From Saprospiraceae bacterium (GTDB taxonomy: Bacteria > Bacteroidota > Bacteroidia > Chitinophagales > Saprospiraceae): DNA of 64,000 nt. The DNA lies in assembly GCA_965220465.1 (NCBI GenBank), contig CBDCPZ010000025.1:918936-982935 (forward strand). Direction: 5' to 3'. The notes beneath the pieces were generated by a model. That model worked only from the letters and a program-made list of their open reading frames with translations, searched no databases and was not told the origin of the DNA. Position 1 is the stretch's first letter. Each line of letters starts with the position of its first letter. This document shows positions 1,020-52,654 of the stretch, one piece after another. The translations under genes were made by a program, and so were the position numbers.

Positions 1020-2525
1020 ATGAAGCTTAAGACATTTTACAAAACGGTTATTTTTGTCTTCTTACTCTTTCCACAATTTTCATTTTCTCAGGAAACAAAA
1101 AATCCATTTTTATTTACCACAGAAAATATTAGCATTACTGATCATGACTCAATTAATCAAATAAATAATAACTCCGTAAATCTTCGAGACGAGAACGATC
1201 TCTTATTAGGTGAAAAAGGTGACAATTGGATATCTGGTAATTGGCAAAATGCTGATTCCGTTGAATATCTATATAATTCCGAAGGACTTTTAATCGAAAG
1301 CATCATTAGACTTGGCCATACCCAACCATGGACTAATTATAGCCGATATGCCTACGAATATGATGAAAATAGCAATTTAGCGGTATGGTTATGGCAAAAA
1401 TGGAACGAATCCGATTGGGTTAATCGTGGTCTTTATAACTACGAGTATGATGCGAATAATAACCAAACTGTGCTACTATCCAAACTGTGGGAATCGTCTA
1501 ATTGGGTAAATTATTCAAAAGAAATCAATGTATATGATGTAAATAATAATTTGATTTCATATTCAGAGCAAAAATGGGATAATGACTTCGGCTGGCAGGA
1601 TAATTCGAGATATACTTATGAATACGATGCAAATAATAATCAGACTTTGATGTTGGTTGAATATCGTGATGAATTTTTTAATTGGCAAAATTCAACTAAA
1701 ATTATTACAGAATACAATTCTGTTAATAAACTAACCCTGCAAAATTATTTTATTTGGAATGACACTACTTGGGCAAACCCGTATCGAACTCTCTATGAAT
1801 ATGACGAAAACGACAACTTAATAAGGGAGTTGTTTCAAAATCCAATTTTACTATCTTGGACTGACAACTATCATTACGTTTATGAGTATGATGTAAATAA
1901 TAATAGAACAAAATACTTAGCGCAGTCTCTCTGGCAATATCCGGAACCGGTTAATTACGAACGAAAATTCTACGAATACGACTTTGATAATAATCTCATT
2001 TTTCAGTTTGATGAAAAGTGGATTGCTGATGCATGGCGCAAGACTCAAAAGCTTACCTTTGAATACGATTCAAACAATAACCTTACACTTGAAAGAGAAC
2101 AGTGGTGGAATGCAACCTATTATGTCAATGATTTTCAGCATAAGTATGAATACGATATAGAAAACAATTTAGTCTTTCACCTTCAGCAAAAAGTAATAGA
2201 TACCGATTGGGTAAACTGGAAACGCAGATTTTACTATTACAAAATAATAATTGATAACCCAGAAATTAGAGCCTCGGATTTAGATTTTCGAATATTTCCA
2301 AATCCAAATAACGGGTATTTTGATATAACAATGGGTAAAAATGATTTTCAACCTGGCCACCTGAATATTTATAATTCAATAGGTCAAATAGTATATATCC
2401 AAACTATCGAAACCGGAGGCATCAAAAAACCACTCGATTTATCTCATCTTTCCGTTGGGACTTACTTCCTTCAACTGATGATAGGAGAAAAACAATCCAC
2501 ACAAACATTCATTATATCCCATTAA
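1020..2525 (+). CDS. T9SS C-terminal-sorting-domain repeat protein (10 x ~29-aa W/Y-rich repeats)
   Basis: Starts with a signal peptide (KLKTFYKTVIFVFLLFPQFSFSQ). The body is ten tandem units with the core Y-E-Y-D-x-N-N-N-x-T and flanking W-x-N-x-x-x-W. The C-terminus (FRIFPNPNNGYFDI...GTYFLQL...) matches a T9SS type A sorting domain. Confidence 0.7.
   Translation: MKLKTFYKTVIFVFLLFPQFSFSQETKNPFLFTTENISITDHDSINQINNNSVNLRDENDLLLGEKGDNWISGNWQNADSVEYLYNSEGLLIESIIRLGHTQPWTNYSRYAYEYDENSNLAVWLWQKWNESDWVNRGLYNYEYDANNNQTVLLSKLWESSNWVNYSKEINVYDVNNNLISYSEQKWDNDFGWQDNSRYTYEYDANNNQTLMLVEYRDEFFNWQNSTKIITEYNSVNKLTLQNYFIWNDTTWANPYRTLYEYDENDNLIRELFQNPILLSWTDNYHYVYEYDVNNNRTKYLAQSLWQYPEPVNYERKFYEYDFDNNLIFQFDEKWIADAWRKTQKLTFEYDSNNNLTLEREQWWNATYYVNDFQHKYEYDIENNLVFHLQQKVIDTDWVNWKRRFYYYKIIIDNPEIRASDLDFRIFPNPNNGYFDITMGKNDFQPGHLNIYNSIGQIVYIQTIETGGIKKPLDLSHLSVGTYFLQLMIGEKQSTQTFIISH
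1340..2210 (+). repeat. Tandem ~87-90-nt coding repeat, about 10 copies
   Basis: The motif tat/tac-gaa-tac/tat-gat...aat-aat-aa recurs at ~1352, 1441, 1536, 1619, 1711, 1795, 1882, 1972, 2060 and 2147. Confidence 0.6.
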
Positions 2526-2637
2526 AATATGGTCGATAACATATTCTATTTTCAATCGTCCAATTTATAGATTATGTCTCAAAAAGACTACTTTTTAAAA
2601 GCACCTCGTTTATTTTCCAAATCAATTTTAGGTTAAA

Positions 2638-3546
2638 ATGATTAAAAATATTTTTCTTTTTGTTGCCATCGCTTTTTTGGCTTCTTGTTCCACTTCCAAA
2701 AAAACGAGTCCTTACGAATTTGCCCTGATGAGCGCCGATGTCTATGATGCGGGAATCGTTTCGGAATTTCCAACCCATATTCAACCATTTATGGATTTCG
2801 ATAAAAACAATTTTAGTTCTCCTTTAAATATTGATTTTAATAAAGTTTTGGATTTGGCGGAGCAAAAAGATTGGAAACAATTAGCGCCCTATCTTGCTAT
2901 CAAGTCATTTGGCAAAGGCGGTTACTTCGGCAGAGCTTACATAAATACCAGAAGCAATCAAATCATCATCGCACACCGCGGGACGGATATCGATTTTAAC
3001 CGATTAAAAGGAAATGACCTTAACTTTTCAACAGGCATCAGCTTTAAAGATCTTATCCGCGACATTGACGACAATTATGATATTTTTAAAGGGGAGATTC
3101 CATACCAGCAATTAGCAGCCGCAAAATATTTTACGGAACTTGTAAAGCTCGATTACGAAAAGAAGTATGGCAAAAAAAATCCACAGGTCATCCATACTGG
3201 TCATTCGTTAGGAGCGGTGTTGGCCGAACTTTCAGCGATTGAAAATAAAGGAAATGCCGTTACTTTCGAAAGTCCCGGCTCTAATCCTATGGTTGAAAAA
3301 ATACTGGAATTGAACAAAGTGGATAAAAGCAGCTTCAAAATAATTACCTACAACATGGTTCCAAATTCTGTAAATCTGACCAACGCTCCTGCCGGAAAGG
3401 TTTATTATCTAAAAGATTTTGATCAATCTCTGAAAACTGATGATCCTTATAGCGATGGAGCTATCCAGGCAGCACTGGAAAACCATGGAATTGAAGAAAT
3501 TCTTTTGCAATTTGACCCGAAGACTGGTAAGCCGAAGAAGAAATAG
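2638..3546 (+). CDS. Class-3-lipase-like alpha/beta hydrolase lipoprotein
   Basis: Has a lipobox (FLASCST) and a GHSLG nucleophile elbow (HTGHSLGAVLAELSA). Region IIIAHRGTD is typical of the lipase_3/DUF2974 group. Confidence 0.6.
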   Translation: MIKNIFLFVAIAFLASCSTSKKTSPYEFALMSADVYDAGIVSEFPTHIQPFMDFDKNNFSSPLNIDFNKVLDLAEQKDWKQLAPYLAIKSFGKGGYFGRAYINTRSNQIIIAHRGTDIDFNRLKGNDLNFSTGISFKDLIRDIDDNYDIFKGEIPYQQLAAAKYFTELVKLDYEKKYGKKNPQVIHTGHSLGAVLAELSAIENKGNAVTFESPGSNPMVEKILELNKVDKSSFKIITYNMVPNSVNLTNAPAGKVYYLKDFDQSLKTDDPYSDGAIQAALENHGIEEILLQFDPKTGKPKKK

Positions 3547-3628
3547 TTTGTGGTTGGGAGTTGGGAGATTTCCTTTTTTAACTCTTTACGTCTTTACATT
3601 TTAACATCCTTACCTCTTGCCCTCTAAC

Positions 3629-4108
3629 TCATTCCTCTTTATAAAGCATCGCAGGATCAGCCATAAACCATTGTTCCCGATCTTTGGTAAAGCCGAATGT
3701 AGCGTGTGGTAATTTTAGGTTGAGCATTTTTAAAACATTTTCTGTTTCCTTTTCCGTCATACTCAAAGTGATTTCATCACCATCGATCAGTTTGAAATAA
3801 ATTGTGGCATTTTTTGAAAACTCCAGACCGAAGGGCATGCGCTGAGTCACGATTGAATAAACCCAAACAATTTTTTTAGGAGCATTTGTAAGCAATTGTA
3901 AAAGAAGCGTTTTGTCAACATTTCTGTTTAAAAGAGCATCGCGAGTATATTTTATTCCTAATACAGTTAAAACAATTCCAACAATTACGATTGCTCCATT
4001 CAACTGAAAAGCAAAAATACAAAGCAACTCTCCAAACAACAGCAAAGCCACTGAAGCTATTAGTTTCAGGCGAATTTCACGTTTCAAAGCTATTCGGATT
4101 GCTTCCAT
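3629..4108 (-). CDS. Hypothetical two-TM membrane protein
   Basis: A 159-aa ORF with two hydrophobic helices (LIASVALLLFGELLCIFAF; AIVIVGIVLTVLGI) followed by a soluble domain. No family recognised. Confidence 0.4.
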   Translation of the reverse strand: MEAIRIALKREIRLKLIASVALLLFGELLCIFAFQLNGAIVIVGIVLTVLGIKYTRDALLNRNVDKTLLLQLLTNAPKKIVWVYSIVTQRMPFGLEFSKNATIYFKLIDGDEITLSMTEKETENVLKMLNLKLPHATFGFTKDREQWFMADPAMLYKEE

Positions 4109-4231
4109 ATTTATGCAATATTCAATAATTCAAACAAATTTTTTGTTTTAATTTTAATTTTTAATAAACATTTTGTTGTTTTATAAATAAATTGTTTATA
4201 AATTGCAACAATAACAGCAATACGATAATGA

Positions 4232-5083
4232 ATGAGGGATTGTTTTAACCAAAATAGTCGAATCATGGATCTACAAATTTTAGTCAGTAAAAAAGGAACT
4301 CAAGTTGTAACTGCATCAAATCTTCACGATGCGCTTCGCCTTCCACAACATAAATATAATAGTAACATTGCAAAATGGCTCACTGATATTTACAACTTCA
4401 ATGGTGATATCAGAAAACCAATTGAGTTGAAAGATTATTCGAAAAGGAATCTGAAACTCAGCAAAAGAAAAGACTTTTATTTATCTATTGAGTTAGCGAA
4501 ACTGATTACACTGAATTCAGATAGCAATGCCAAACAACAATACGCTAAGTGGTTGACAACACTCGAACATAAAGAAGACACGATTGGTTTTTTTTCCAAA
4601 GATCAAATTGTTGCAGTTTTGGAATTGACGAAAGCAATGGGTTTGATTAGCTGCCAAAAATCAGTTGAACAACATCACTTGCAAGCTTATGAAGAAACAT
4701 ACGGCAGACCATACCGTTGGTGGGAATATCGCGCAAATCTTCTCGGATACTCGGTAGAAGAATTAAAATCAAAAATGCGGCAAGTCGGAAAGAGTTATAA
4801 AGGCAAAAACATTTTACAAATGCTGATGACAGTTGACAAATATGAAATCATCCGAATGGCCGTTATTGATCTCTTCCTGGCTTTAGGAAAAACCATAGAA
4901 TATGCGAAAAGTATGGGAGATTTGGCTAAGTTTTTTGCTACTGAATTGAAGGTGGAAATTTGGGATGACCGTAAATCTTCCATCAATTTCATGACGCATA
5001 AAGTCAACCCTCAATTGGTTGAAGAAGTAAAAATGATGAAGAAAGGTAAAAACTTACCAATGTGGTTGAACAAAGCAATCTAA
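4232..5083 (+). CDS. Hypothetical protein (start uncertain; alternative Met at ~4265)
   Basis: A 283-aa ORF with no recognisable motif. A strong rho-independent terminator follows it. Confidence 0.4.
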   Translation: MRDCFNQNSRIMDLQILVSKKGTQVVTASNLHDALRLPQHKYNSNIAKWLTDIYNFNGDIRKPIELKDYSKRNLKLSKRKDFYLSIELAKLITLNSDSNAKQQYAKWLTTLEHKEDTIGFFSKDQIVAVLELTKAMGLISCQKSVEQHHLQAYEETYGRPYRWWEYRANLLGYSVEELKSKMRQVGKSYKGKNILQMLMTVDKYEIIRMAVIDLFLALGKTIEYAKSMGDLAKFFATELKVEIWDDRKSSINFMTHKVNPQLVEEVKMMKKGKNLPMWLNKAI

Positions 5084-5126
5084 ATCGTTTTAAAAATATA
5101 ATTTTAATCGTTTAATTTTCGGAGGG

Positions 5127-5178
5127 GATTTAAACTTCAAAAAGTTCATGCAACTTCAGAAGTTTAAATCTTTTTTAA
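5127..5178 (+). terminator. Rho-independent terminator
   Basis: Perfect 12-bp stem gatttaaacttc / gaagtttaaatc with a 19-nt loop, followed by TTTTTT. Confidence 0.6.
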
Positions 5179-5254
5179 TTTCTTAACTTTGAACCCAATA
5201 TATTGCTATTGCGTTTTATGTACAATCCACTGAAAAGATAGAAAACAGTATTAT

Positions 5255-7180
5255 ATGTCTAAGGTAACTTATAACGAAGATAACATCAGATCGCTTGATT
5301 GGCGGGAGCATATTCGGATGCGTCCGGGAATGTATATCGGAAAACTGGGAGATGGTTCTTCTCCAGATGACGGTATTTATATTTTGATCAAAGAAGTCAT
5401 TGACAATTGCATCGATGAATATGTAATGGGATTTGGTAAATACATCGACGTAACACTTTCTGAAGGTAACATATTAGTTCGTGATTTTGGCAGAGGTATT
5501 CCTTTAGGGAAAGTTGTAGACTGTGTGTCAAAGATAAATACCGGTGGGAAATACGATTCCAAAGCTTTTAAAAAGTCTGTTGGCTTAAATGGTGTTGGAA
5601 CAAAAGCGGTAAACGCGTTGTCTGATTATTTTAAAGTTCAGGCTATCCGAGATGGAAAAACCAAAATTGCTGAATTTGAACGAGGTGAGATTAAAAATGA
5701 CGCCAAAATTATCAAGTCATCTGACGAAAACGGAACGCTAATTCTTTTCAGGCCAGACGCCTCCGTTTTTAAGAATTATCGTTTTCGGCCAGAATTTATG
5801 GAAGCTCAACTCTGGAACTATGCTTATTTAAATTCCGGATTGAAAATCAATTTTAATGGCAAAACCTTCTTTTCACGAAATGGTTTGCTTGATCTCCTAA
5901 CTCGCAAAACCAGTACGGAACACCTCCGCTACCCAATCATCCATCTTAAGGGGGAGGACATAGAAGTTGCCATTACACATGGTCAACATTATGGCGAACA
6001 ATATCATACTTTTGTAAACGGTCAAAATACAACTCAAGGAGGTACGCATTTAAATGCTTTCCGGGAATCTTTGGTTAATGTAATAAGAGGTTTTTATAAC
6101 AAAAACTACGATGCAAAAGATATCCGTTCTTCAGTAATCGCGGCTTTAAGCGTTCGAGTTGAAGAACCTGTTTTTGAATCTCAAACGAAGACAAAATTAG
6201 GCTCGCAAAATGTCGCTCCAGATGGCCCTACAATGAGGTCTTTTATCAATGATTTTCTGAGTAAAGAATTGGACAATTTTTTACACCAAAATCCCGAAGT
6301 TGCCAAAAGCTTACAGAAAAGAATTTTGCAGTCAGAACGGGAACGTAAAGAAATTGCAGGAATTAAAAAACTGGCAAACCAACGAGCTAAAAAAGCGAAC
6401 CTTCATAACAAAAAACTACGCGATTGCCGCAAACACTACAACAGCAATGGCCGTGAAGTTAGCGAAGAAGACCGAAATGCGTCCACCGTTTTCATAACCG
6501 AGGGAGATTCGGCAAGTGGTTCCATAACAAAAGCGAGGGATGTGCAATCACAAGCTGTATTTAGCTTACGAGGTAAACCCTTAAATTGCTATGGCTTAAC
6601 CAAAAAAGTCGTTTATCAAAACGAAGAATTTAACCTCCTCCAACATGCATTGAATATTGAAGATAGTCTGGATGATTTGCGATACAATCGAGTGGTGATT
6701 TCTACAGACGCAGATGTTGATGGAATGCATATTCGATTATTATTACTCACTTTCTTTTTACAGTTTTTTCCTGACCTGGTACGAGCTGGCCACCTTTATA
6801 TTCTGGACACTCCTCTGTTTAGGGTTCGAGATAAAAAAACAACCTTTTATTGTTACAGCGAAACTGAAAAACAAGAGGCGATAGAAAAACTGCGTGGTAA
6901 AGCAGAAATCACACGATTTAAGGGCCTTGGTGAAATTTCACCAGATGAATTCGGAGATTTTATTGGCGAAGATATTCGATTGGAACCAGTGATTCTCAGA
7001 GAAGAAACCAACATTGACCAAGTCCTTGAATATTATATGGGCAAAAACACTCCCGATCGACAGGGTTTTATTATTGATAATTTGAGAATTGAAAAAGATG
7101 AATTAACAGAAATTCAAAAAACCAGTACAGCGGAACCTCAAACCATTCAGCAAAAATCCGAAGTAGAAGTCGCCAGTTAA
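5255..7180 (+). CDS. parE: DNA topoisomerase IV subunit B
   Basis: A 641-aa GHKL/Toprim type IIA topoisomerase B subunit. The N-terminus ([41 protein letters not shown]) matches the Bacteroidota ParE pattern rather than GyrB. Confidence 0.8.
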
Positions 7181-7465
7181 AGCTGTTCGGAAAAAATAAT
7201 TTTACAACTTTACATCATTGTGACAAAATAGGTGGAACCGCTTATTTTGGAAACTTGGATATTTCATAGAATATCAAACTGTCTTTTTGTCGCCTAAATG
7301 TGAAAAAGGGGTTAATATAACAGGTTTGATTGCCAAAAAATGCCAAAAAGAACCTATAATTGCCACGGCATAAATATTGACTATTCATTATACGTTTATA
7401 AAAGAATATATTGAATGTCAATTTGGCATTTTGATATTTATTAAAATAAAAGACAGTGTTGATAT

Positions 7466-9877
7466 ATGAGTTTTCTTGAAAATTTTTTTATTCCACAAAG
7501 TATTGATGAAGATGGTGATTTTATGCCTTTACTTTCGGTAGAGGAGGAAGAAGATATCGCAACAGGTGAAAATTTTCCTGAGGTGATCCCAATTCTTGCT
7601 TTAAAAAATACAGTGCTCTTTCCAGGCATTGTTATCCCCATAACTGTTGGGAGAGATAAATCAATAAAAGCAATAAACAAAGCCTATGAAAATGACCGGA
7701 TTATAGGCGTTTTATCACAAAAAGAAAGTCAGACTGAAGATCCTGATACTGGCGATTTGTATAAAGTTGGTACAGTAGCACGTATCTTGAAATTGTTGAA
7801 AATGCCTGATGGCACTGCGACAGCAATCCTTCAGGGACGAAGGCGTTTTTCACTTTCCGAAATGATAGAAGAGGATCCTTACATGGTAGGTAAGGTTTCG
7901 GTATTAGAAGAAACTATCCCGGAGGATAATCTTGAGTTTAAAGCATTGATCTCCACAATCAAAGACAAGGCAAAACAAATTATTCAGCTTTCGCCAAATA
8001 TCCCGTCCGAAGCCTCTGTAATGTTAAAAAACATTACTAACAATTCATTTTTAGTCAATTTTATAGCCTCGAATTTAGGGATCAACAATGTCAAAAAACA
8101 ATTAGTCCTCGAGATTAATAATCAAAAAGATAAAGCTTCGGCAATTCTTGGATACATGGATCACGAGTTGCAATTGCTTGAATTGAAAGACCAGATTGAA
8201 TCAAAAGTCAGGGGAGATATTGAGAAACAACAACGAGATTATTTCCTAAATCAGCAACTGAAGACTATTCAGGAGGAATTGGGACAAAATCCGAACGAGG
8301 CAGAAATTCTTTCGCTAATCGAAAGATCAAAAAAGAAAAAATGGTCGAAAGAAGTCGCTGAGATTTTTCAAAAAGAAATCAATAAAGTTCAACGGATGAA
8401 TCCGCAGGTCGCCGAATATTCCGTCTTGTTGAATTATCTGGAATTCATGCTTGATCTACCTTGGGGAGAATACACAAAAGATAATTTTAACCTCAAAAAA
8501 GTAAAACAAGTACTTGACACGGACCATTTTGGCCTTGAAGAAGTAAAAGAAAGAATTCTGGAACACCTTGCGGTTTTAAAACTGAAAGGAGATATGAAAG
8601 CGCCGATCTTATGCCTGGTAGGTCCTCCTGGGGTAGGAAAAACATCACTCGGAAAATCTATTGCCAGAGCTCTAAAGCGCAAATCAATAAGAATGTCGCT
8701 TGGTGGATTGCATGACGAATCAGAAATCAGAGGTCATCGCAAAACCTATATTGGAGCAATGCCAGGGAGAATTCTTCAGTCAATGAAGAAAGCCAAATCT
8801 TCAAACCCGGTTTTCATCCTTGATGAAATTGACAAAGTTGGAAAAGATTTTCGGGGTGATCCGTCTTCTGCATTGCTGGAAGTTTTGGATCCGGAACAAA
8901 ACACTACTTTTCATGACAATTATCTAGAAATAGAATATGATCTATCCAAGGTATTATTTGTCGCCACAGCAAACTCTTTAGGGTCTATTCAACCTGCATT
9001 GCTGGACAGAATGGAAATCATAGATATCAGCGGATATTCCGTTGAAGAGAAAATTGAAATTGCAAAGAGGCATCTAATCCCTCAACAATTGAAAGAGCAT
9101 GGTCTAACTTCAAAAAATGTCAAATTGAAAACAGATGTTATTGCAAAACTAATTTCAGATTATACGCGTGAATCAGGGGTACGTTCTTTAAACAGACGGA
9201 TTGCAGGAGTGATGAGAAATGCAGCTAAAAAGGTTGCTATGGAAGAACCATTTAACCCAAATCTGAAGCCCACAGACCTTAAGGACATAGTTGGCCCCCC
9301 CAGGTACTCCACTGAAATGTATAAAGAAACAAATGCTCCGGGGGTAGCCATCGGTTTAGCCTGGACAAGAGTAGGCGGTGACATACTTTTCATTGAAGTT
9401 AGTTTGAGCAAAGGGAAAGGAAAACTGACGCTGACGGGAAATTTGGGCGAAGTGATGAAAGAATCAGCTACAACTGCCCTAAGTTATTTGAAAGCACACA
9501 GCGAATCATTGGGTCTCAATCCTGAAGTATTTGAGGAAAACGACATCCACATTCATGTACCCGAAGGGGCCATTCCAAAGGATGGGCCATCGGCTGGTAT
9601 CACGATGATTACAGCTCTAGCTTCCGCTTTTAATAAACGATCCGTAAAGCCATTTTTGGCAATGACAGGTGAAACTACTTTGAGAGGAAAAGTATTACCG
9701 GTCGGTGGTATAAAAGAGAAAATACTTGCAGCTAAAAGAGCAGGTATTAATGAGATCATAATTTGTAAAGATAATCGTAAAGATATTGAGCAAATCAATG
9801 AAAATTATATCAAAGATTTGAAATTTCATTACGTTTCTACGGTAGATGAAGTACTTGATTTAGCAGTAGGTTTTTAA
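7466..9877 (+). CDS. lon: ATP-dependent Lon protease (endopeptidase La)
   Basis: An 803-aa ORF with a Lon N-domain, Walker A (GPPGVGKTS) and the Lon catalytic serine motif (DGPSAGITMITALAS). Confidence 0.9.
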   Translation: MSFLENFFIPQSIDEDGDFMPLLSVEEEEDIATGENFPEVIPILALKNTVLFPGIVIPITVGRDKSIKAINKAYENDRIIGVLSQKESQTEDPDTGDLYKVGTVARILKLLKMPDGTATAILQGRRRFSLSEMIEEDPYMVGKVSVLEETIPEDNLEFKALISTIKDKAKQIIQLSPNIPSEASVMLKNITNNSFLVNFIASNLGINNVKKQLVLEINNQKDKASAILGYMDHELQLLELKDQIESKVRGDIEKQQRDYFLNQQLKTIQEELGQNPNEAEILSLIERSKKKKWSKEVAEIFQKEINKVQRMNPQVAEYSVLLNYLEFMLDLPWGEYTKDNFNLKKVKQVLDTDHFGLEEVKERILEHLAVLKLKGDMKAPILCLVGPPGVGKTSLGKSIARALKRKSIRMSLGGLHDESEIRGHRKTYIGAMPGRILQSMKKAKSSNPVFILDEIDKVGKDFRGDPSSALLEVLDPEQNTTFHDNYLEIEYDLSKVLFVATANSLGSIQPALLDRMEIIDISGYSVEEKIEIAKRHLIPQQLKEHGLTSKNVKLKTDVIAKLISDYTRESGVRSLNRRIAGVMRNAAKKVAMEEPFNPNLKPTDLKDIVGPPRYSTEMYKETNAPGVAIGLAWTRVGGDILFIEVSLSKGKGKLTLTGNLGEVMKESATTALSYLKAHSESLGLNPEVFEENDIHIHVPEGAIPKDGPSAGITMITALASAFNKRSVKPFLAMTGETTLRGKVLPVGGIKEKILAAKRAGINEIIICKDNRKDIEQINENYIKDLKFHYVSTVDEVLDLAVGF

Positions 9878-43708: not shown

Positions 43709-44043
43709 TCAAGAAAACGCTTTCCCTATTAAGTTTGCAAAAAGAAAATTCTTTATCAAAAATTTTAATGTAACCCAAAGAAACAGAGGTGTTTTTTTAA
43801 TTTGAATTCTTAATTTTTTTCTTTATATTTTCTCAAAGCCAAGAGAAAAAACCTTAATCAAAGCAACTTTAGTTTTACTACTGGTTGCTTCGCAAATTAA
43901 AATAGTTAATTTTACAATCAGATTATTTAACTGCCGTGATTCTGGTTTTTTTGTTGGCAAAACTCAGTGTCGCTGGCATTTTGATCAATTACACTAATGA
44001 AATACTATTCTGCAGCTCGCAGAAATATAAGAACTGAAGAAGC

Positions 44044-46536
44044 ATGGCCACAAAAAATACAACCAAAGGAAAGAAACAACTTTCTTTTAAAATAGGCATC
44101 AATGACGAGCGTATCCCAAAACTTGTAGGAGTTTTTTGTTTGTTTCTTGCATTATATTTATTTATTGCTTTTTCCTCTTATTTGTTCTCCTGGCAAATTG
44201 ACCAGGACCGGGTGTTGCAGCATTCCTTAGGACTTCTTTTACAGGGAGATGTCGAAATGGCAAATTGGTTGGGTAGGCTCGGAGCTATCGTTTCCAATAT
44301 GTTTTTTTACTGGGGATTTGGCTTACCTTCTTTCATTTTCGTTTTTGTTTTAACGGTCGTTGGTTTGGGTAGTATTCGACGTGTTCCTTTCCAAAAACAT
44401 ACTAGTATCTTGTGGTCTTCCTTTTGGCTGCTTTTGTTCTCTTCTATATTGTTAGAATTCCTTTTTCAAAATGCTGAATTTCCATGGGGAGGTGCTTTTG
44501 GTGAAGAAGTATCTACCTGGCTGACCAATTTTTTGGGGACAATCGGTCTCGCGATATTGTTTGTTTTCATCGGTATTGGCTTAGTCACCTGGTTTACGAA
44601 TCCTAATTTCAATGAACTTACTTTCAATGGAGTGGTAAAAGAGGTCAAATATTTTTTTGAGGATTTGATAAGCGGGCGACGACGTTTTCAAAAAAAAGAA
44701 CAACCTCAAACTTCATCCTTGACTACTTTGAAGCCTCGAAATCAATCCTTTGAAGGCGGTAAGGAAGAACCCGATGGAAATGCTGCAAGCGATTCTGAAA
44801 CAGCTAAAAGCAGCAATGATGAATTAACTGAATTGGACGAAAAAGGTCAATTGCGATTTAAACTTGGTGATAAAAAAAGAGAAAAACCTCAATCACTCAA
44901 AAAGGGGGAAGGCGAATTAGAAATTGAAGATCCAGTTGAAACGGAAATTTCGGTTGAAACGGATCCTCTTGCCGGTAAGCCTGACATGACCATTGTTGCT
45001 GAAAACTCGGATCATGGCGAACCTTATGACCCCACATTAGAATTGTCTTCGTATGAAAATCCTGTCGTCTCTTTACTCAATGAATATTCTGAAGGAAAGG
45101 TAGAAATTGATCGCGCTGAACTTGAACAAAACAAAGATCAGATCATCGAAACATTGCTCAATTACAAAATTGAGATCACAAAAATAAAAGCGACAATTGG
45201 CCCTACAGTGACGCTTTATGAGATTGTTCCAGCACCTGGTGTTCGAATTTCAAGGATCAAAAATCTGGAGGATGACATTGCGTTGAGCCTTGCAGCTCTT
45301 GGAATTCGGATTATCGCTCCGATTCCTGGAAAAGGAACCATCGGTATTGAGGTGCCAAACAAAAACAAACAAACAGTTTCCTTAAAAGAAGTCCTCGTCC
45401 ACGAAAAGTTCAAAAGGGCTAAAATGGACCTTCCGATTGGTTTTGGAAAAACGATTTCAAATGAGGTTTTTGTTGCTGATTTAGCAAAAATGCCTCACTT
45501 GCTTATCGCCGGAGCCACCGGTCAAGGGAAGTCTGTCGGGATTAATGTAGTATTGATGTCGCTTTTATATAAGAAACATCCATCTCAAATCAAATTCGTT
45601 TTAATTGATCCGAAAAAAGTGGAGCTTTTCCCTTACAGCAAAATTGAAAACCACTTTCTGGCTTACCTTCCGGGACTGGATGAACCAATCGTTACCGACA
45701 CGACGAAGGTGGTTCACACGCTCAATTCGTTGACTATTGAGATGGAAACGCGTTATGATTTGCTCAAAAAAGCGCAAGCGAGAAATATCCGTGAGTACAA
45801 CGAAAAATTTATTGCCAGAAAACTAAACCCGAATAATGGACATCGGTTTTTACCTTTTATCATTTTGGTCATTGACGAATTTGCGGATTTGATCATGACA
45901 GCTGGTAAAGAAATTGAATTGCCGATCGGAAGGCTAGCTCAGCTTTCTCGTGCTGTTGGAATTCATCTGATCATTGCTACACAGCGTCCATCTGTCAATA
46001 TTATCACGGGAGTGATTAAAGCTAATTTCCCTGCACGTATTGCGTTTAAAGTAACTGCAAAAGTAGATTCGCGAACCATCCTCGATACTGGTGGAGCTGA
46101 TCGACTGATTGGTCGCGGAGATATGTTACTTTCCTTTGGCAGCGATATTATCCGTTTACAATGCGCGTTTGTAGACACACCTGAAGTTGAAAGAGTTATT
46201 GATTTTATATCACAACAGAAAGGTTACCCTATGCCCTATTTCCTTCCTGAATTCCATGGTGATGAAGAAACACATTCCGGCGGTTCCGTTAATTTTAGTG
46301 ATCTGGATGAAAATCTGGATGATGCTGCTCGTTTGGTCGTTTCCAACCAACATGGTTCCACTTCAATGATCCAGCGCCGATTGAAGTTAGGTTATAACAG
46401 AGCTGGTCGAATAATGGATCAGCTGGAATCACTTGGAATTGTCGGACCAAGTGAAGGAAGCAAAGCACGTGAAGTTTTATTTTATGATGAAATAGAATTG
46501 GAACGGTTTTTGGAGGACCTAAAAAATAGGAAATAG
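44044..46536 (+). CDS. ftsK: DNA translocase FtsK/SpoIIIE
   Basis: An 830-aa ORF with N-terminal TM helices, a linker, a motor domain (Walker A GATGQGKS; LIIATQRPS) and a C-terminal gamma winged-helix domain. Confidence 0.9.
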   Translation: MATKNTTKGKKQLSFKIGINDERIPKLVGVFCLFLALYLFIAFSSYLFSWQIDQDRVLQHSLGLLLQGDVEMANWLGRLGAIVSNMFFYWGFGLPSFIFVFVLTVVGLGSIRRVPFQKHTSILWSSFWLLLFSSILLEFLFQNAEFPWGGAFGEEVSTWLTNFLGTIGLAILFVFIGIGLVTWFTNPNFNELTFNGVVKEVKYFFEDLISGRRRFQKKEQPQTSSLTTLKPRNQSFEGGKEEPDGNAASDSETAKSSNDELTELDEKGQLRFKLGDKKREKPQSLKKGEGELEIEDPVETEISVETDPLAGKPDMTIVAENSDHGEPYDPTLELSSYENPVVSLLNEYSEGKVEIDRAELEQNKDQIIETLLNYKIEITKIKATIGPTVTLYEIVPAPGVRISRIKNLEDDIALSLAALGIRIIAPIPGKGTIGIEVPNKNKQTVSLKEVLVHEKFKRAKMDLPIGFGKTISNEVFVADLAKMPHLLIAGATGQGKSVGINVVLMSLLYKKHPSQIKFVLIDPKKVELFPYSKIENHFLAYLPGLDEPIVTDTTKVVHTLNSLTIEMETRYDLLKKAQARNIREYNEKFIARKLNPNNGHRFLPFIILVIDEFADLIMTAGKEIELPIGRLAQLSRAVGIHLIIATQRPSVNIITGVIKANFPARIAFKVTAKVDSRTILDTGGADRLIGRGDMLLSFGSDIIRLQCAFVDTPEVERVIDFISQQKGYPMPYFLPEFHGDEETHSGGSVNFSDLDENLDDAARLVVSNQHGSTSMIQRRLKLGYNRAGRIMDQLESLGIVGPSEGSKAREVLFYDEIELERFLEDLKNRK

Positions 46537-46639
46537 GAGGCAACCTTGTGATTTATTTCACAGGGAAACTTAAAACCTAGCGGATCAATTTCGTTAGGTT
46601 TTTTTTCTTTTAAGGCCTCATTTTTTCTAGGACTAACTT

Positions 46640-48277
46640 TCATTTTACAAAATACATATTTACCTCTCCGATATTCTTAGCCATAATTTTTCCCCTTGCT
46701 TCACAAGTGTATTCATCTTTCACTAATTGATAAGTAGCTTCTGAAATATTGATTTTACCTGATTCTCCATTACTCTCCATACGACTGGCTATATTGACTG
46801 TATTCCCCCAAATATCATAAGCAAATTTTTTATCGCCCACTACACCTGCCACAACAGGTCCGCTATGAATGCCAATCCGCATCTGCCAGTAAGCCTGTCC
46901 GCCAGCTTTTTTTTCTGCAATTCGCTTATTAATAAATGCATTGAACTCTAAACCAACTCTGATAGCGCAATAAGAGTGTTGCTCATCTGGTATGGGTAAA
47001 CCTGAAACACACATGTAAGAATCACCAATCGTTTTTATTTTTTCCATTCCTTGTTTTTCGATGATGGCATCAAAGTTTCGAAAGCAATAATTGAGTTCTT
47101 CAATTAGTTGTTCAGGACTCATCGAAGATGCTACTTTTGTAAAGCCGCTAAAATCAGTAAATAAAACAGTGGCGTTGTCGTAGCGTTTTGGACTAGCGTA
47201 GCCTTTTTCCTTAAGTTCCTGTGCCGTTTCTTCAGGCAGAATGTTGAGCAAAAGTTGATCTGATTTTATACGTTCTGCAGTAATTTCTTCTTTCTGATGC
47301 TCGATAGCTTCGTTTTTTTGACTGAGTTGCTGGTTGAGTTTTCTTGAGTACAACAAACCTACTGCTACGGCTAAAATGATGAAGATCATCAGGGCTCCCA
47401 AACCGTAAAAAAATTTTACCCTTTCTTTTTGTTTGTCTAATTCCAACACATTAATTTCTTTGTCTCGGAGCAGGATGTCATTTTGTTGTTTTTCTGCAGT
47501 TAATTGGGCTTCTTTATTTTGTATATCGAGTTGTTGAAGTGCTTCCTTTTGGTGGAGCATCGTCACTTCTTGTTCCTGTTGAGATGCGATCAGCCGTTGT
47601 TGGGTGAGTTCTAGTTCTTGCTTCGCTCTTTGAGTTTCTAATTCCTGTGTTTGAAGTTTACTGGCTCTGATTTCGTTTTCTTTTTGAAGTAGTTCCTTTT
47701 CTTTTTGTTCGGCAATCAATTGAGCTTCTTTATTTTGCAATGCTAATTGTTGATTCTCTGCTTCCACCTTTAATTGGGAAATGGTGAGCTCTTGTATGTC
47801 TTCATTTATCATGAAAAGTTTGATCTGTTTTTCAGTGCGTTCCAGGTCAATTTGTTGTTGCAGCAATTGTTGCTGACGAATTTTTTCTTCAAACGCAAAA
47901 GAATCCCGCAATTGTAAATGTTTTTGAAAATAATCAAGAGCAGTGTCATATTCATAAAGCCCCGAATAAATAAGGGCCGTGGTGTAATAAACATCGGTGA
48001 GCAAGGCATCATTTTGATTGACTTTTGCGATGGCTTCTGATTGATTAGAATATTCAAGGGCATTATGCAGATCCAGCTTTTTAAGGTAAACTGTTGCTAA
48101 CAATTGATTGATTTCATCAACTCCTACGTGGTCATATTTGTTTTTAATATTTTTTGACTCTAACAAATAATCAATACTTGTTGCAAAATCTCCAAGGTTG
48201 TAATAAGCAATTCCAATATTAGTGGTCAGTATCACTTTGTCAGAATGATCTTTTTCCTCAAGCAGTTTGAGAGCCAT
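46640..48277 (-). pseudogene. C-terminal portion of an IS630-disrupted gene for a TPR/coiled-coil membrane class-III adenylate/guanylate cyclase
   Basis: The cyclase motifs are FTDFSGFT, GDSYMCVSG and RIGIHSGPVVAGVVG. The reading frame continues upstream without a start codon for 49 codons until it reaches the IS630 end at ~48425. Confidence 0.7.
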
Positions 48278-48425
48278 TTCGAAATACCCAATTGATTCTT
48301 TATATTGTTTTAGGTAATTATAGTTGAAACCAAGGTTATTATAAACTAGCAGCCGCTCTTGATTGGAGCGATTGTTACCTTCCAGTAGTTGCTTGATTTG
48401 GAGATTACATTCCAGTGCATGACTA

Positions 48426-49532
48426 TACCTTTAATTAATTGTTATGGGAATGTACAGACGTACCACCCACTGTCCTGAAATTCAGAGAGAGTAGCGATTT
48501 TAAATCTGACTTATAGTCCTTGATATTTTCTAAAAAATCAATTATTTCATTTTTGAAATCATCATATTTTTCAAAATAAATCGAATTAATTATTTTCTGT
48601 TTTAAGTAGCCCCATAAGCGTTCAATTAAATTAAGGTTGGGGGAATAAGGGGGTAAGAAAATAAATTTTATCCTTTTATTTTCGGCCCATTCCTTTAGCA
48701 CTCTATTTCGATTATATTTTGCATTATCGCAAATGAAATAGATGGTCCCTTTTCTATGCTTTTTTAGTAAGGATTGACAAAGCCTTTGGGTAGATTGAGC
48801 ATTTACACTTTTGGTAATATCATAAACCAATTTTGTTGAGTCTGTTGCATTAATTGCTGCATTGATATTCACTCTCTTCCTGCCACTGTTTGCTTGTATC
48901 TCGAAACTTTTTCCTCGCTTTATCCATCCTCTGCTTTTTATGGTGTTGTGAGTCGGATGACAGCCGTCAGAGTAATAAACCACGGCTTGTCCAGCTTTTT
49001 GTTCTTCTAATATGGCTGGTAATACTTCTTCTAAAAATTCAACCTGCGCCTGTTCATCCGCTTTACCCGGAACTACTTTTGTTTCTTTATATTCATAACC
49101 CAGGCGATGAAGCAAGGGAATCAATCCTGTTGGAGTATATTTAACATCAAATTCTTCCTCTATAAATTGACATATAAATTTTGAATCTGAGTAGCAATTC
49201 TCTTCTAAATGTTCGTCCAGTAGTGTTAATTGTTCTTCTGATAATTTTCCTGAATATGGAATGTAACCATCCTCAATATATTTTTTAAGACCTACTTTTT
49301 TATAGGCCTTTTCATATCTGTAAATCGTATTATCATCTATGCCCAATGCCAATTCTACCATTTTTACTTCATAGCCCTGATCTAACATTATTATTACTGT
49401 TACTTTTATGTAACGACGACGATGCAAGCCTGGTTTCTGCTGAATTTTTCGCAGTGCTTTTAATTCTTCGGATGTTAACTCTATTTTCACAACGCTATTA
49501 TACGAATTTTCCCAATCTTCTTAATTTTGGGT
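48426..49532 (-). mobile_element. IS630-family (Tc1/mariner-like) insertion sequence with TA target-site duplication
   Basis: Imperfect TIRs tacctttaattaatt (left) and aattttgggta (right) are each flanked by TA (48424-25 and 49533-34). The enclosed transposase is on the minus strand. Confidence 0.7.
48435..49490 (-). CDS. IS630-family DDE transposase (GTG start)
   Basis: A 351-aa ORF with an N-terminal HTH and DDE_3 domain (YYSDGCHPTH...FICDNAKYNRN...FLPPYSPNLNLIERLW). Confidence 0.8.
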   Translation of the reverse strand: MKIELTSEELKALRKIQQKPGLHRRRYIKVTVIIMLDQGYEVKMVELALGIDDNTIYRYEKAYKKVGLKKYIEDGYIPYSGKLSEEQLTLLDEHLEENCYSDSKFICQFIEEEFDVKYTPTGLIPLLHRLGYEYKETKVVPGKADEQAQVEFLEEVLPAILEEQKAGQAVVYYSDGCHPTHNTIKSRGWIKRGKSFEIQANSGRKRVNINAAINATDSTKLVYDITKSVNAQSTQRLCQSLLKKHRKGTIYFICDNAKYNRNRVLKEWAENKRIKFIFLPPYSPNLNLIERLWGYLKQKIINSIYFEKYDDFKNEIIDFLENIKDYKSDLKSLLSLNFRTVGGTSVHSHNN

Positions 49533-50029
49533 ATATATTGCTTATTGAGCATATAGGCTTTTGCCATTTCATGTAAAGTATTGATTTGACCATTAAGGTT
49601 TCCTGATTTTTCTTTGTTGTCGAAAATGATTTTGTAAAAATAATAGGCACTGTCAGGTCTTGATAGATTTGAATAGGTTCCAGCCAATTGTTGATATAGG
49701 TTTTCTGACTGATTATCAAATAATGCATTCTTATCTAAAGCATTAAGTGCTTTCAGGTAATAAGGAAGCGCTTGTTCGTATAATTGCTCCTTTTCATAAA
49801 TATTCGCAATAGCCATACACACCTCCGGAAGATGATATCGATCATCAGCCTCCTCTACCGCATCGTAAACCCGTAACCAGCGCACCAATACTTCGCCGGC
49901 AGAGGCATCAGTGGCTTGTTCATCTAATGCAGCCTGGATCAGTACAGTAACATTATCCTGTTGGGACCAGACTAGGTATGGAAGGCAAAAAAGCATTAGC
50001 GCCGCAGTTAAATTTTTAATATCGATCAT
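49487..50029 (-). pseudogene. N-terminal portion (signal peptide plus TPR) of the IS630-disrupted cyclase gene
   Basis: Has a signal peptide (LTAALMLFCLPYLVWSQQ) and a TPR-like segment. The last 15 codons are IS-derived. The frame is restored into 46640..48277 when the IS plus one TA is removed. Confidence 0.65.
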
Positions 50030-50035
50030 GGTATT

Positions 50036-52387
50036 TCACTCGAGTCGGTAATTTATTCCAAATCTTATAAACCGCTTGGACTGTGGATTGTAAATAAGGC
50101 CATCTGCATCAGGAGTTGCATCTAACCCAGCGTATTCAACATTGAAAAAATTATTGATTCTCATATATGCCAGCAATTGTTTGTTGAATTGATAATTAAC
50201 CGTCATATCGAGTGTATAATATCCGGAATTATACAATTTACCACTTTCCAGCAAATCAGGATCCTGGTAAAAGAGCGCATTCTGCGTCAAACTTCTCGTC
50301 AAAAAAGTGTTTTCAAACAGCAATCGGACTTTTTTTAAAGGCTTAAGTTCAATATCCAACTGTATAATCCATTCTGGCTGAGAACGAAGATCATCCAATT
50401 CGAGCAATACGAATTCAAATTCCTTGAAAGAAAAAGTGCTGAAACCTTCTTTTCCTCTGGCATAATTCAAATTGAACGTACTGCTAAGGCCGATGGCGGG
50501 CAATATATTTTTAAAAGTAATGCTCGATTGAATGCCATATAATTCGGCGTAAGCATTTTTATCATTAAAATACCCACTAATAAATCCAACAAAATCAGTT
50601 GTAGGAACAATGGAGTAGCGGATGAAATTATTTGTACGGGAAAAATAAACAGCCGCATCACCGTGAACTTTCGGCCCCAGTGTCCAGCGGCAGCCAATTT
50701 CAGCACTAAAGGTTTGTTCAGGGCTCAATCTCGCACCGGTGTTGACAACACCAATGTTGTTAATGTTAATCGTATAAGATGTAGCAGAGTAATAAGGTGA
50801 AGGGTAACGGTATGAACTGCCTGTTGATCCGCGGAGACTTAACTTATCCGTCCATCGATATTGCAATGCCAGTCTGGGATTCATGATCAACTGGGCACTT
50901 TCTGAATAATCAGTTATACGGGTAAATAATTGTGTCCCTATTATGACGTTCCATTTACCGATATTCACATAACCTTCCAAAAAAGTACTAAAATCAAAAT
51001 AATATGCTTCGTCGATAACGATACGTTCGATAATCAGACTGTCGCTAAGGTCACTTAAAGGATTGGGGCTAAAATTCCGCAAAGGTGCCCCCCCTCCTCC
51101 TTGCAACTTAACACCTGAGGTGAGTTCAAATTTTTCACTAAAATCATAATTCATTAGAGACTCAATCATAATTTCCCCTGACAGAGCGGAACTATACCGG
51201 TTGCCGGAAAAATACAGTTCATTGACCACTTGCTTCAGCGAATCTAATTGTTGTTCATTTCCCGAAATGTCTTCTGCAATTACTTGATGAATAAAATTGA
51301 AAAAGGGAATTACGTAGGAATATGAACTGTTATCATCAGTCTGGTAGGCAATTACGCTGAAAGAGTTTTTTATATGAAAGCGATCATTTGTTTTGCTATT
51401 ATTGAGTTGGAAACTGGTAATCTTTTCTCCAAAAAAGTTAAGTGGATTAGCGTAGGATACAGCATAGGGGCTCAAACCAATTGAGCTGTGATCACGGCGA
51501 TAATAGTTTTGGACGGATAGCTGCCAATTTCGATAACGCAGATCAATTCCCAGCGCATTGCTTAAATGAGGTAATTGGCCCAATTGAGGAGTCTCTTCGG
51601 TTCCTTTGTAATTGGGACTGTTGAGATAAGAAAAATTTTCGGGATTTAAGACACGTTGATAGGTAAGCGGATTATAAAGCGAATCCATGTCATATTTGAT
51701 TCTCCTGTCGTCGAAAGTTGTATAATTTCCAAACACTTGAAACTTCAACACCTTCTTGTCTTTTCCCATCTTTCCGCTAAACATTATATCTAAATTTTTA
51801 AACCCATCTCCACCAAATCCCAGATCAGATTGTAAATAAATAGGCCGTTCGGATTCTTTCAGAATAATGTTTATAATGCCGGCAGAAGCATCAATTCCAT
51901 AAATAGTAGCCGCAGGGCCATAAATAATTTCGATGCGCTCGGCTTCACGAATGGGAAATTGAGCTCCAATGGGTACACCACTTACCAAAAAGGGCTTTAT
52001 AGGAATATCGTTGATCAAAATTTTCGCGTAGGTATTACCCAGCAAACCTCTCATTAAAAAAGTTTCTCCCTCTAACGCCGAACCCGGTTGTGACACCCGT
52101 ATCCCCGGCAAACGTTTAAGTACATCAGTAAGGGTCAGGTAGCCATTTTTTCGTATCTCTTCACCAGTAATTACAAATATGGTAAATGGAAGGTCAGCAA
52201 CTTCTTTTTCCGAGCGACTTCCTGAGATGACCTTTGTTCCTTGTAGCAAGTCCTCGCTGCTTTTAACATCTTTCCAGTTGAGTTGTGAGAATTCCAATCG
52301 CAAACTATCCTCTTGTTGACCATAAAGTACTGTAAAGGCAAGCATAAAAGTAATCCAAATACAAGTCAAAGGTTTGCGGTGGCCCAT
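50036..52387 (-). CDS. TonB-dependent outer-membrane receptor
   Basis: Has a plug domain (DVLKRLPGIRVSQ...) and a C-terminal beta-barrel. The preferred start is MGHRKPLTCIWITFMLAFTVLYGQQ at 52387. The longest ORF extends to 52456. Confidence 0.75.
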   Translation of the reverse strand: MGHRKPLTCIWITFMLAFTVLYGQQEDSLRLEFSQLNWKDVKSSEDLLQGTKVISGSRSEKEVADLPFTIFVITGEEIRKNGYLTLTDVLKRLPGIRVSQPGSALEGETFLMRGLLGNTYAKILINDIPIKPFLVSGVPIGAQFPIREAERIEIIYGPAATIYGIDASAGIINIILKESERPIYLQSDLGFGGDGFKNLDIMFSGKMGKDKKVLKFQVFGNYTTFDDRRIKYDMDSLYNPLTYQRVLNPENFSYLNSPNYKGTEETPQLGQLPHLSNALGIDLRYRNWQLSVQNYYRRDHSSIGLSPYAVSYANPLNFFGEKITSFQLNNSKTNDRFHIKNSFSVIAYQTDDNSSYSYVIPFFNFIHQVIAEDISGNEQQLDSLKQVVNELYFSGNRYSSALSGEIMIESLMNYDFSEKFELTSGVKLQGGGGAPLRNFSPNPLSDLSDSLIIERIVIDEAYYFDFSTFLEGYVNIGKWNVIIGTQLFTRITDYSESAQLIMNPRLALQYRWTDKLSLRGSTGSSYRYPSPYYSATSYTININNIGVVNTGARLSPEQTFSAEIGCRWTLGPKVHGDAAVYFSRTNNFIRYSIVPTTDFVGFISGYFNDKNAYAELYGIQSSITFKNILPAIGLSSTFNLNYARGKEGFSTFSFKEFEFVLLELDDLRSQPEWIIQLDIELKPLKKVRLLFENTFLTRSLTQNALFYQDPDLLESGKLYNSGYYTLDMTVNYQFNKQLLAYMRINNFFNVEYAGLDATPDADGLIYNPQSKRFIRFGINYRLE

Positions 52388-52654
52388 TAGGTTTATATCA
52401 TTTGATTTGTTGCTAAAATAGAAAGGTTTAATGAATCTAGATAAAAAGATTGCCAAATATATGGCAAATAGAAGAGCAAAACACGGAAACCTGGAGTCTT
52501 AAGCGCAATCGGGTAGATATACCTCAAAGACTTATAAGAAGTTGAATCAGCATAATAATATCGAATACATCATTTAAAGGCTCAATATTATACCAATTTG
52601 ATTTCTGAGATCGTTATTTATACGTTTCCAAATTCAGAACAAGCACTTTTGAAA

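Follow-up and report, generated by a model that had tools for sequence, protein, structure and literature searches.

An IS630-family element between the halves of one cyclase gene

The 64-kb window analysed here (64,000 nucleotides of contig CBDCPZ010000025.1 from a Saprospiraceae bacterium; "the window" denotes this whole stretch) carries three consecutive minus-strand open reading frames (ORFs) between positions 46640 and 50029: 49487..50029 (180 amino acids, aa), 48435..49490 (351 aa) and 46640..48277 (545 aa). The outer two had been proposed, in a prediction made from the DNA letters, to be fragments of a single adenylate cyclase gene, and both exist as described; the middle one is the transposase gene of an unnamed insertion sequence (IS) of the IS630 family, which occupies 48426..49533 on the minus strand (1108 bp). 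The 5' cyclase fragment, at 49534..50029 (minus strand), comprises codons 1-165 and the first base of codon 166; it encodes a signal-peptide-like N-terminus and the first tetratricopeptide repeats (TPRs), and aligns to residues 1-165 of the orthologues described below. The 3' fragment, at 46640..48423 on the same strand, contains the remaining two bases of codon 166 and all codons down to the stop, and encodes TPR sequence, a segment rich in Gln, Glu and Leu (Q/E/L-rich), a transmembrane (TM) helix and the cyclase domain. The element interrupts codon 166 (AGT). It is the IS and not the host gene that supplies the final 15 residues of the 180-aa ORF (IPKIKKIGKIRIIAL), and the Met at which the annotated 545-aa ORF begins is an internal one, corresponding to residue 215 in the restored protein; the 49 codons ahead of this Met stay open and align gap-free with the orthologues.

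Rejoining the fragments in silico showed which nucleotides belong to the insertion. Deletion of the IS alone (1108 nt) leads to a stop at codon 191. Deletion of the IS together with both of the TA dinucleotides that flank it (1112 nt) shifts the frame to a stop at codon 164, which rules out an alternative delimitation, an IS of 1112 bp that includes the TAs and made no duplication. Deletion of the IS and exactly one TA (48424..49533, 1110 nt) yields an ORF of 759 aa that reads ...AKAYMLNKQY-SHALECNLQIK... across the junction. The original prediction, that AYMLNKQY joins the 49 codons preceding the annotated Met and that precise excision restores an ORF of about 760 aa, is borne out in this sense, which concerns the sequence and makes no claim of excision in the cell. 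Its further statement, that the frame is restored only when the IS and one TA are removed, holds among the three meaningful deletions though not literally: when all nearby deletions were tested, any that removed a number of nucleotides divisible by three also kept the frame.

The limits of the element were set by comparison of eight identical copies, that in the window and seven elsewhere (L002-L008, 100 % identical). Similarity among them ceases at the same two positions, one at each end, and all eight read TA/TACCCAAAATT...TTAAAGGTA/TA (slashes mark the ends of the element); that is, the shared sequence is bounded exactly, as TA/TACCC...GGTA/TA, in every copy. The left end, on the transposase strand, lies at 49533, one base beyond the end first predicted (about 48426..49532), the start of which was correct. 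The target-site duplication is represented by the TA at 49534..49535 beside the left end and that at 48424..48425 beside the right; a TA adjoins both ends in 8/8 copies, and only retention of one TA restores the frame, as the deletion test had indicated, so that the predicted TA duplication stands. Comparison of the IS ends revealed a left terminal inverted repeat, TACCCAAAATTAAGAAGATTGGGAAAA, at 49507..49533 (minus strand), and a right one, whose reverse complement is TACCTTTAATTAATTGTTATGGGAATG, at 48426..48452 (minus strand). The repeats are imperfect, matching at 16/27 positions, with a perfect TACC tip (TACC...GGTA). No tRNA gene was found in a search of the window, and tRNA-targeted integration is not at issue.

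The transposase gene (48435..49490, minus strand) starts with GTG and encodes a protein of 351 aa with helix-turn-helix (HTH) and DDE domains. The protein matches the curated NCBIfam profile NF033545 transpos_IS630 over positions 5-298 of 299 (182.9 bits, cutoff 100) and Pfam DDE_3 with 98.9 bits (cutoff 28.6, E 3e-28); HTH_33 is matched by residues 106-155 (51.6 bits, cutoff 25, E 7e-14), which places an HTH region in the N-terminal part as is typical of IS630 transposases, and HTH_29 by residues 30-87 at a score under its cutoff (20.6 bits against 28.1). A catalytic triad of the DD34E type, assigned by inspection of motifs within the DDE_3 match and not from a structure, consists of D175 (YSDGCH), D255 (ICDNAK) and E290 (LIERLW), separated by 79 and 34 residues; the second spacing is that of the family (~34-35). 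The length of 1108 bp, the single 351-aa ORF and the terminal repeats fit the range of ~1.0-1.4 kb and the organization of IS630 elements, as does duplication of TA at the target. The IS630-Tc1-mariner group as a whole is characterized by one transposase ORF, a paired HTH with a DDE/D domain, terminal inverted repeats and TA duplication (PMC8533490), and the element in the window has all of these features. An IS630-type element between the two cyclase fragments and flanked by TA, as first proposed, is what the comparison of copies and the transposase profile together reveal.

Uninterrupted orthologues and synteny

Used as a query, the restored protein brought up uninterrupted orthologues: three of 759 aa (P0001, P0002 and P0003, at 87 %, 80 % and 76 % identity), one of 758 aa (P0005, 71 %), and more than 15 further full-length relatives at 50-60 % identity. 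The alignment with the orthologues is gap-free across the junction (residues 160-170), and the restored length is that of the three closest. The nearest named genomes with relatives are Saprospiraceae and other Bacteroidota metagenome-assembled genomes. At the nucleotide level the restored gene and its counterpart at L001, the locus of the 87 % orthologue, are both 2280 nt long and 83 % identical, with no gaps; in the target region L001 reads CAATACAGTAAT where the restored window reads CAATATAGTCAT, and the corresponding sequences at two more orthologous loci are CAATACCAAAAT and CAATACCGAAAA. When the IS and one TA are taken out of window positions 43901..52600, the remainder matches L001 as a single collinear stretch of 7.4 kb in which 78 % of the nucleotides are identical. 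The original prediction had proposed comparison with empty sites in related genomes as its check; in this comparison the orthologues carry one uninterrupted gene with no gap at the junction. The intact 759- and 758-aa orthologues at syntenic loci and the 7.4-kb collinearity with L001 confirm that one gene was split in two.

The neighbourhood is conserved as well. A gene for a TonB-dependent receptor (50036..52456, minus strand) ends, with its stop codon, 6 nt before the ATG of the cyclase gene, and at L001, L088 and L089 the same gene, with Plug and TonB_dep_Rec domains, again precedes the cyclase gene, the distance in all four cases being 6-11 nt. The pair occupies 50036-52456 plus 46640-50029 in the window, 3637-8280 at L001, 443-5080 at L088 and 1644-6277 at L089. 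On the other side a convergent FtsK gene (44044..46536, plus strand, 830 aa) forms the downstream edge of the locus. The order TonB-dependent receptor, cyclase, convergent FtsK is common to the window, L001 and L089, the FtsK proteins of the latter two being of 830/831 aa. The receptor and cyclase genes of the pair are probably co-transcribed, and their conserved association hints at cyclic AMP (cAMP) signalling tied to outer-membrane uptake. A terminator-like hairpin lies at 46572..46602, between the cyclase and FtsK genes. Since FtsK is convergent and this hairpin separates the two, the insertion should have no polar effect beyond the cyclase gene, and downstream genes should be spared.

These data bear directly on the question of whether the two host ORFs might be independent genes, one for a small secreted TPR protein and one for a separate TPR-cyclase, with the IS merely intergenic. 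Both fragments are indeed called as ORFs with start codons of their own, and the 545-aa one is recorded publicly: the search with the restored protein returned it as P0004 (100 % identity, 72 % coverage). Against this, all close relatives are one protein of 758-759 aa that spans both fragments without gaps; the 180-aa ORF finishes in residues supplied by the IS; the open codons preceding the 545-aa Met align with the orthologues; and in-silico excision yields exactly the orthologue length. To save the proposal the orthologues would have to be fusions, which is implausible given more than 20 full-length proteins. The orthologue alignments and the synteny refute independent genes, to which we attach a vanishingly small probability. 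The two fragments are halves of one gene, because the orthologues are uninterrupted and gap-free and the syntenic loci collinear.

A different objection is that the arrangement was created in silico, when long reads of a metagenome were joined chimerically at a repeat during assembly. Within one assembly the IS does recur in several copies that are 100 % identical, and it is at such repeats that assemblers err. A chimeric join, however, would not set a complete element between the halves of a gene with both flanks collinear, nor would it leave a TA cleanly duplicated (2 bp) in just the way that restores the frame; an assembly artefact is extremely unlikely.

Proposed course of the insertion, other copies and signs of recent activity

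That a cut-and-paste insertion of an IS630-family element split one membrane adenylate cyclase gene is, in our judgement, highly probable. In the course of events that we propose, the IS would have integrated at the TA inside codons 165/166 (TAT AGT) of the 2280-nt cyclase gene and duplicated this target TA, its cargo being the one gene for a 351-aa HTH and DD34E transposase between imperfect terminal repeats of ~27 bp. The target would have been the gene of a receptor-type class III adenylate cyclase, in which a signal peptide is followed by a TPR sensor in the periplasm, a helical stalk, one TM helix and a catalytic domain in the cytoplasm. The protein would now be truncated after residue 165, plus the 15 residues encoded by the IS, and the catalytic part would be left without start codon and signal peptide; because it is stripped of both, the cyclase is most probably inactivated.

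No further IS or transposase copy was found within the 64-kb window, which holds one. Exact look-up of the transposase revealed seven further places, distributed over three contigs of a single ENA metagenome assembly and all 100 % identical over 1108 bp; one of those same contigs also bears a ninth copy, which differs by a single amino acid (T343A, P0182). The eight identical copies occupy eight different TA sites. The exact left IS end gave 0 matches among GTDB species-representative genomes, which do not include the source genome. To judge from at least eight identical copies at different TA sites, several of them splitting ORFs, the IS probably is or very recently was active. The insertion in the window looks recent, as first proposed, because the 2280-nt gene is free of other lesions, neither copy of the TA has been altered and the eight IS copies show no differences.

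In-silico excision of the IS and one TA also opens junction-spanning frames at four of the other copies, each at positions 2958-4065 of its locus: 599 codons at L007, where fragments with nSTAND3 and SNaCT8 domains are joined, 354 codons at L004, 332 codons at L006 (a Fic protein) and 247 codons at L003. This suggests a recent burst of insertions that created pseudogenes, several in defence-type genes; the burst is not specific to the cyclase gene. The contigs that carry L003-L008 (234 kb and 279 kb) carry many transposases of other kinds (IS91/Y2_Tnp, IS66, DDE_Tnp_1) along with many defence-like genes (SIR2_2, nSTAND3, patatin, Fic), and the flanks of the IS on them have a G+C content of 0.29-0.36, below the 0.37 of the window. 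Their names give coverages of 6.7x for ctg196218 and 7.9x for ctg196301, about 20-fold less than the 160x with which the contig of L002 (ctg195223) is labelled. This high-coverage contig could be a multicopy replicon, or could belong to a different, more abundant organism that shares the IS.

Several observations weigh against the insertion as we have described it. A search of JGI metagenome contigs with the restored junction (30 nt) gave 0 exact matches, and a same-species uninterrupted allele was not found there; the closest empty site is only that of the orthologue at 87 % amino acid and 83 % nucleotide identity, in which the target reads TACA and not TATA. The terminal inverted repeats, though present, are weak. 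The 545-aa remnant ORF persists with its internal Met, and a weak (9/12) hybrid promoter-like match spans the right junction. Finally, the other IS-bearing contigs may stem from an organism other than that of the window.

The missing allele also bears on a reading in which the insertion is no permanent lesion: precise excision of the IS, leaving one TA and occurring at an appreciable rate, would toggle the cyclase linked to the TonB receptor, and with it cAMP signalling, in the population. Apart from the insertion the gene is undamaged, loss of the IS and one TA would restore it perfectly, and the IS appears active. But besides the absence of an uninterrupted same-species allele from the JGI contigs, the other copies split unrelated genes, which points to random hits rather than to a dedicated switch. 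Cut-and-paste excision in the IS630-Tc1-mariner group, moreover, normally leaves a double-strand break or a footprint and not a precisely restored site. We regard a reversible switch as very unlikely, and give this same low estimate jointly to a further proposal that concerns expression of the transposase. None of the three frames that enter the left IS end stays open beyond the transposase start, and the stop codon TGA of the truncated host fragment overlaps the GTG of the transposase gene (TTGTGA, 49487-49492). Such an overlap might couple translation of the transposase to expression of the invaded gene, by which the IS would sense that it had inserted into an active gene.

Promoter-like matches were noted at both ends of the element, by the sigma-70 consensus only, from which Bacteroidota promoters differ. 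One, TTAAGA-16-TATAAT (10/12), lies inside the left inverted repeat at 49524..49497 and ends 6 nt before the transposase GTG. The other, TTCCCA-17-TATAGT (9/12; window 48422-48450), is composed of the right IS end, the duplicated TA and the flank, and is directed into the cyclase remnant.

The restored cyclase and comparison with known systems

The restored protein of 759 aa consists, in order, of a signal-peptide-like N-terminus, TPRs, the Q/E/L-rich segment, a membrane helix, a linker and the cyclase domain. The N-terminus, MIDIKNLTAALMLFCLPYLVWS/QQ (the slash marks the predicted cleavage site), has a Gln after that site which is invariant in ten aligned sequences; a preference for Gln at +1 of signal peptidase I substrates has been reported for Bacteroidota, and the restored N-terminus fits it. 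TPR_12 is matched in the 3' fragment with 38.8 bits (cutoff 30.1), while the matches in the 5' fragment are weak, with E of 1e-5 to 1e-3, and sub-threshold (TPR_7, 25.1 bits against 27.9). The segment of ~160 residues that follows (20 % Q, 16 % E, 15 % L) is read, from its composition, as a putative helical or coiled-coil stalk. A single strongly hydrophobic helix (503-524) stands out as the hydropathy peak, and a short helical linker before the cyclase domain matches the end of the HNOBA model. The description first given, a secreted or membrane TPR, coiled-coil, class III cyclase, stood up to Pfam for the TPR and cyclase parts and to hydropathy analysis for the membrane helix; its signal peptide and coiled coil have been judged by inspection of the sequence only. 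The topology of the cyclase across the membrane is likewise predicted.

The cyclase domain itself matches Guanylate_cyc (PF00211) over profile positions 3-182 of 183 with 195.7 bits (cutoff 21.9, E 7e-58), and adenylate cyclases in the PDB, both mammalian (AC8, AC9, AC5) and bacterial, with E of 9e-69 to 1e-45. Alignment with the C1 and C2 domains of AC8 shows the six canonical adenylate-cyclase residues to be present: D589 and D633, which we take to bind metal (C1-type), K629 and D702, presumably specifying adenine, and N709 and R713, presumably stabilizing the transition state (both pairs C2-type). The full set on one chain is what would be expected of a homodimeric adenylate cyclase.

The value of these results is first one of annotation: the 180-aa and 545-aa "genes" are the halves of one gene, now pseudogenised, for an adenylate cyclase of 759 aa, and identical IS copies of this kind can break assemblies and inflate gene counts. 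They reveal an unnamed 1108-bp IS630-family element, which apparently is or until recently was active in an uncultured bacterium of Saprospiraceae-like affinity, and point to a conserved and uncharacterised pair in this lineage, a TonB-dependent receptor with a TPR-sensor adenylate cyclase. Mechanistically nothing here is new: a member of a well-known IS family has, most probably, inactivated a gene, a real but ordinary knock-out, and the finding neither opens nor settles any general question.

Compared with the IS630 family, the element in the window is alike in its single transposase ORF, its N-terminal HTH and its DDE domain with 34-residue spacing, and equally in its terminal inverted repeats, its length of ~1.1 kb and its TA target duplication. 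It is less close to individual members. The nearest homologues of its transposase, 88 % and 84 % identical and also of 351 aa, are themselves unnamed and lie on metagenome contigs of ~1.2 kb; the nearest named one, "IS630 family transposase [Lewinella sp. 4G2]" (P0116), is 58 % identical, and no named relative exceeds this figure. Since none is closer, the element would receive a new IS name, as a new member of the family. IS630 itself targets CTAG, whereas the target here is simply NTAN in an AT-rich context, and the repeats of the element are rather weak by comparison.

The interrupted protein, for its part, resembles receptor-type class III adenylate cyclases in that a sensor outside the cytoplasm is linked through one TM helix to a catalytic domain inside it, and the closest solved catalytic domains are those of mammalian AC8, AC9 and AC5 and of the mycobacterial cyclase entries 4p2m and 5o5k. 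It differs from the known cyclases of this type in its sensor, an array of TPRs followed by a Q/E/L-rich helix of ~160 residues, and in the pairing of its gene with that of a TonB-dependent receptor, in a Saprospiraceae-like lineage of the Bacteroidota in which the copy found in the window is an interrupted one.

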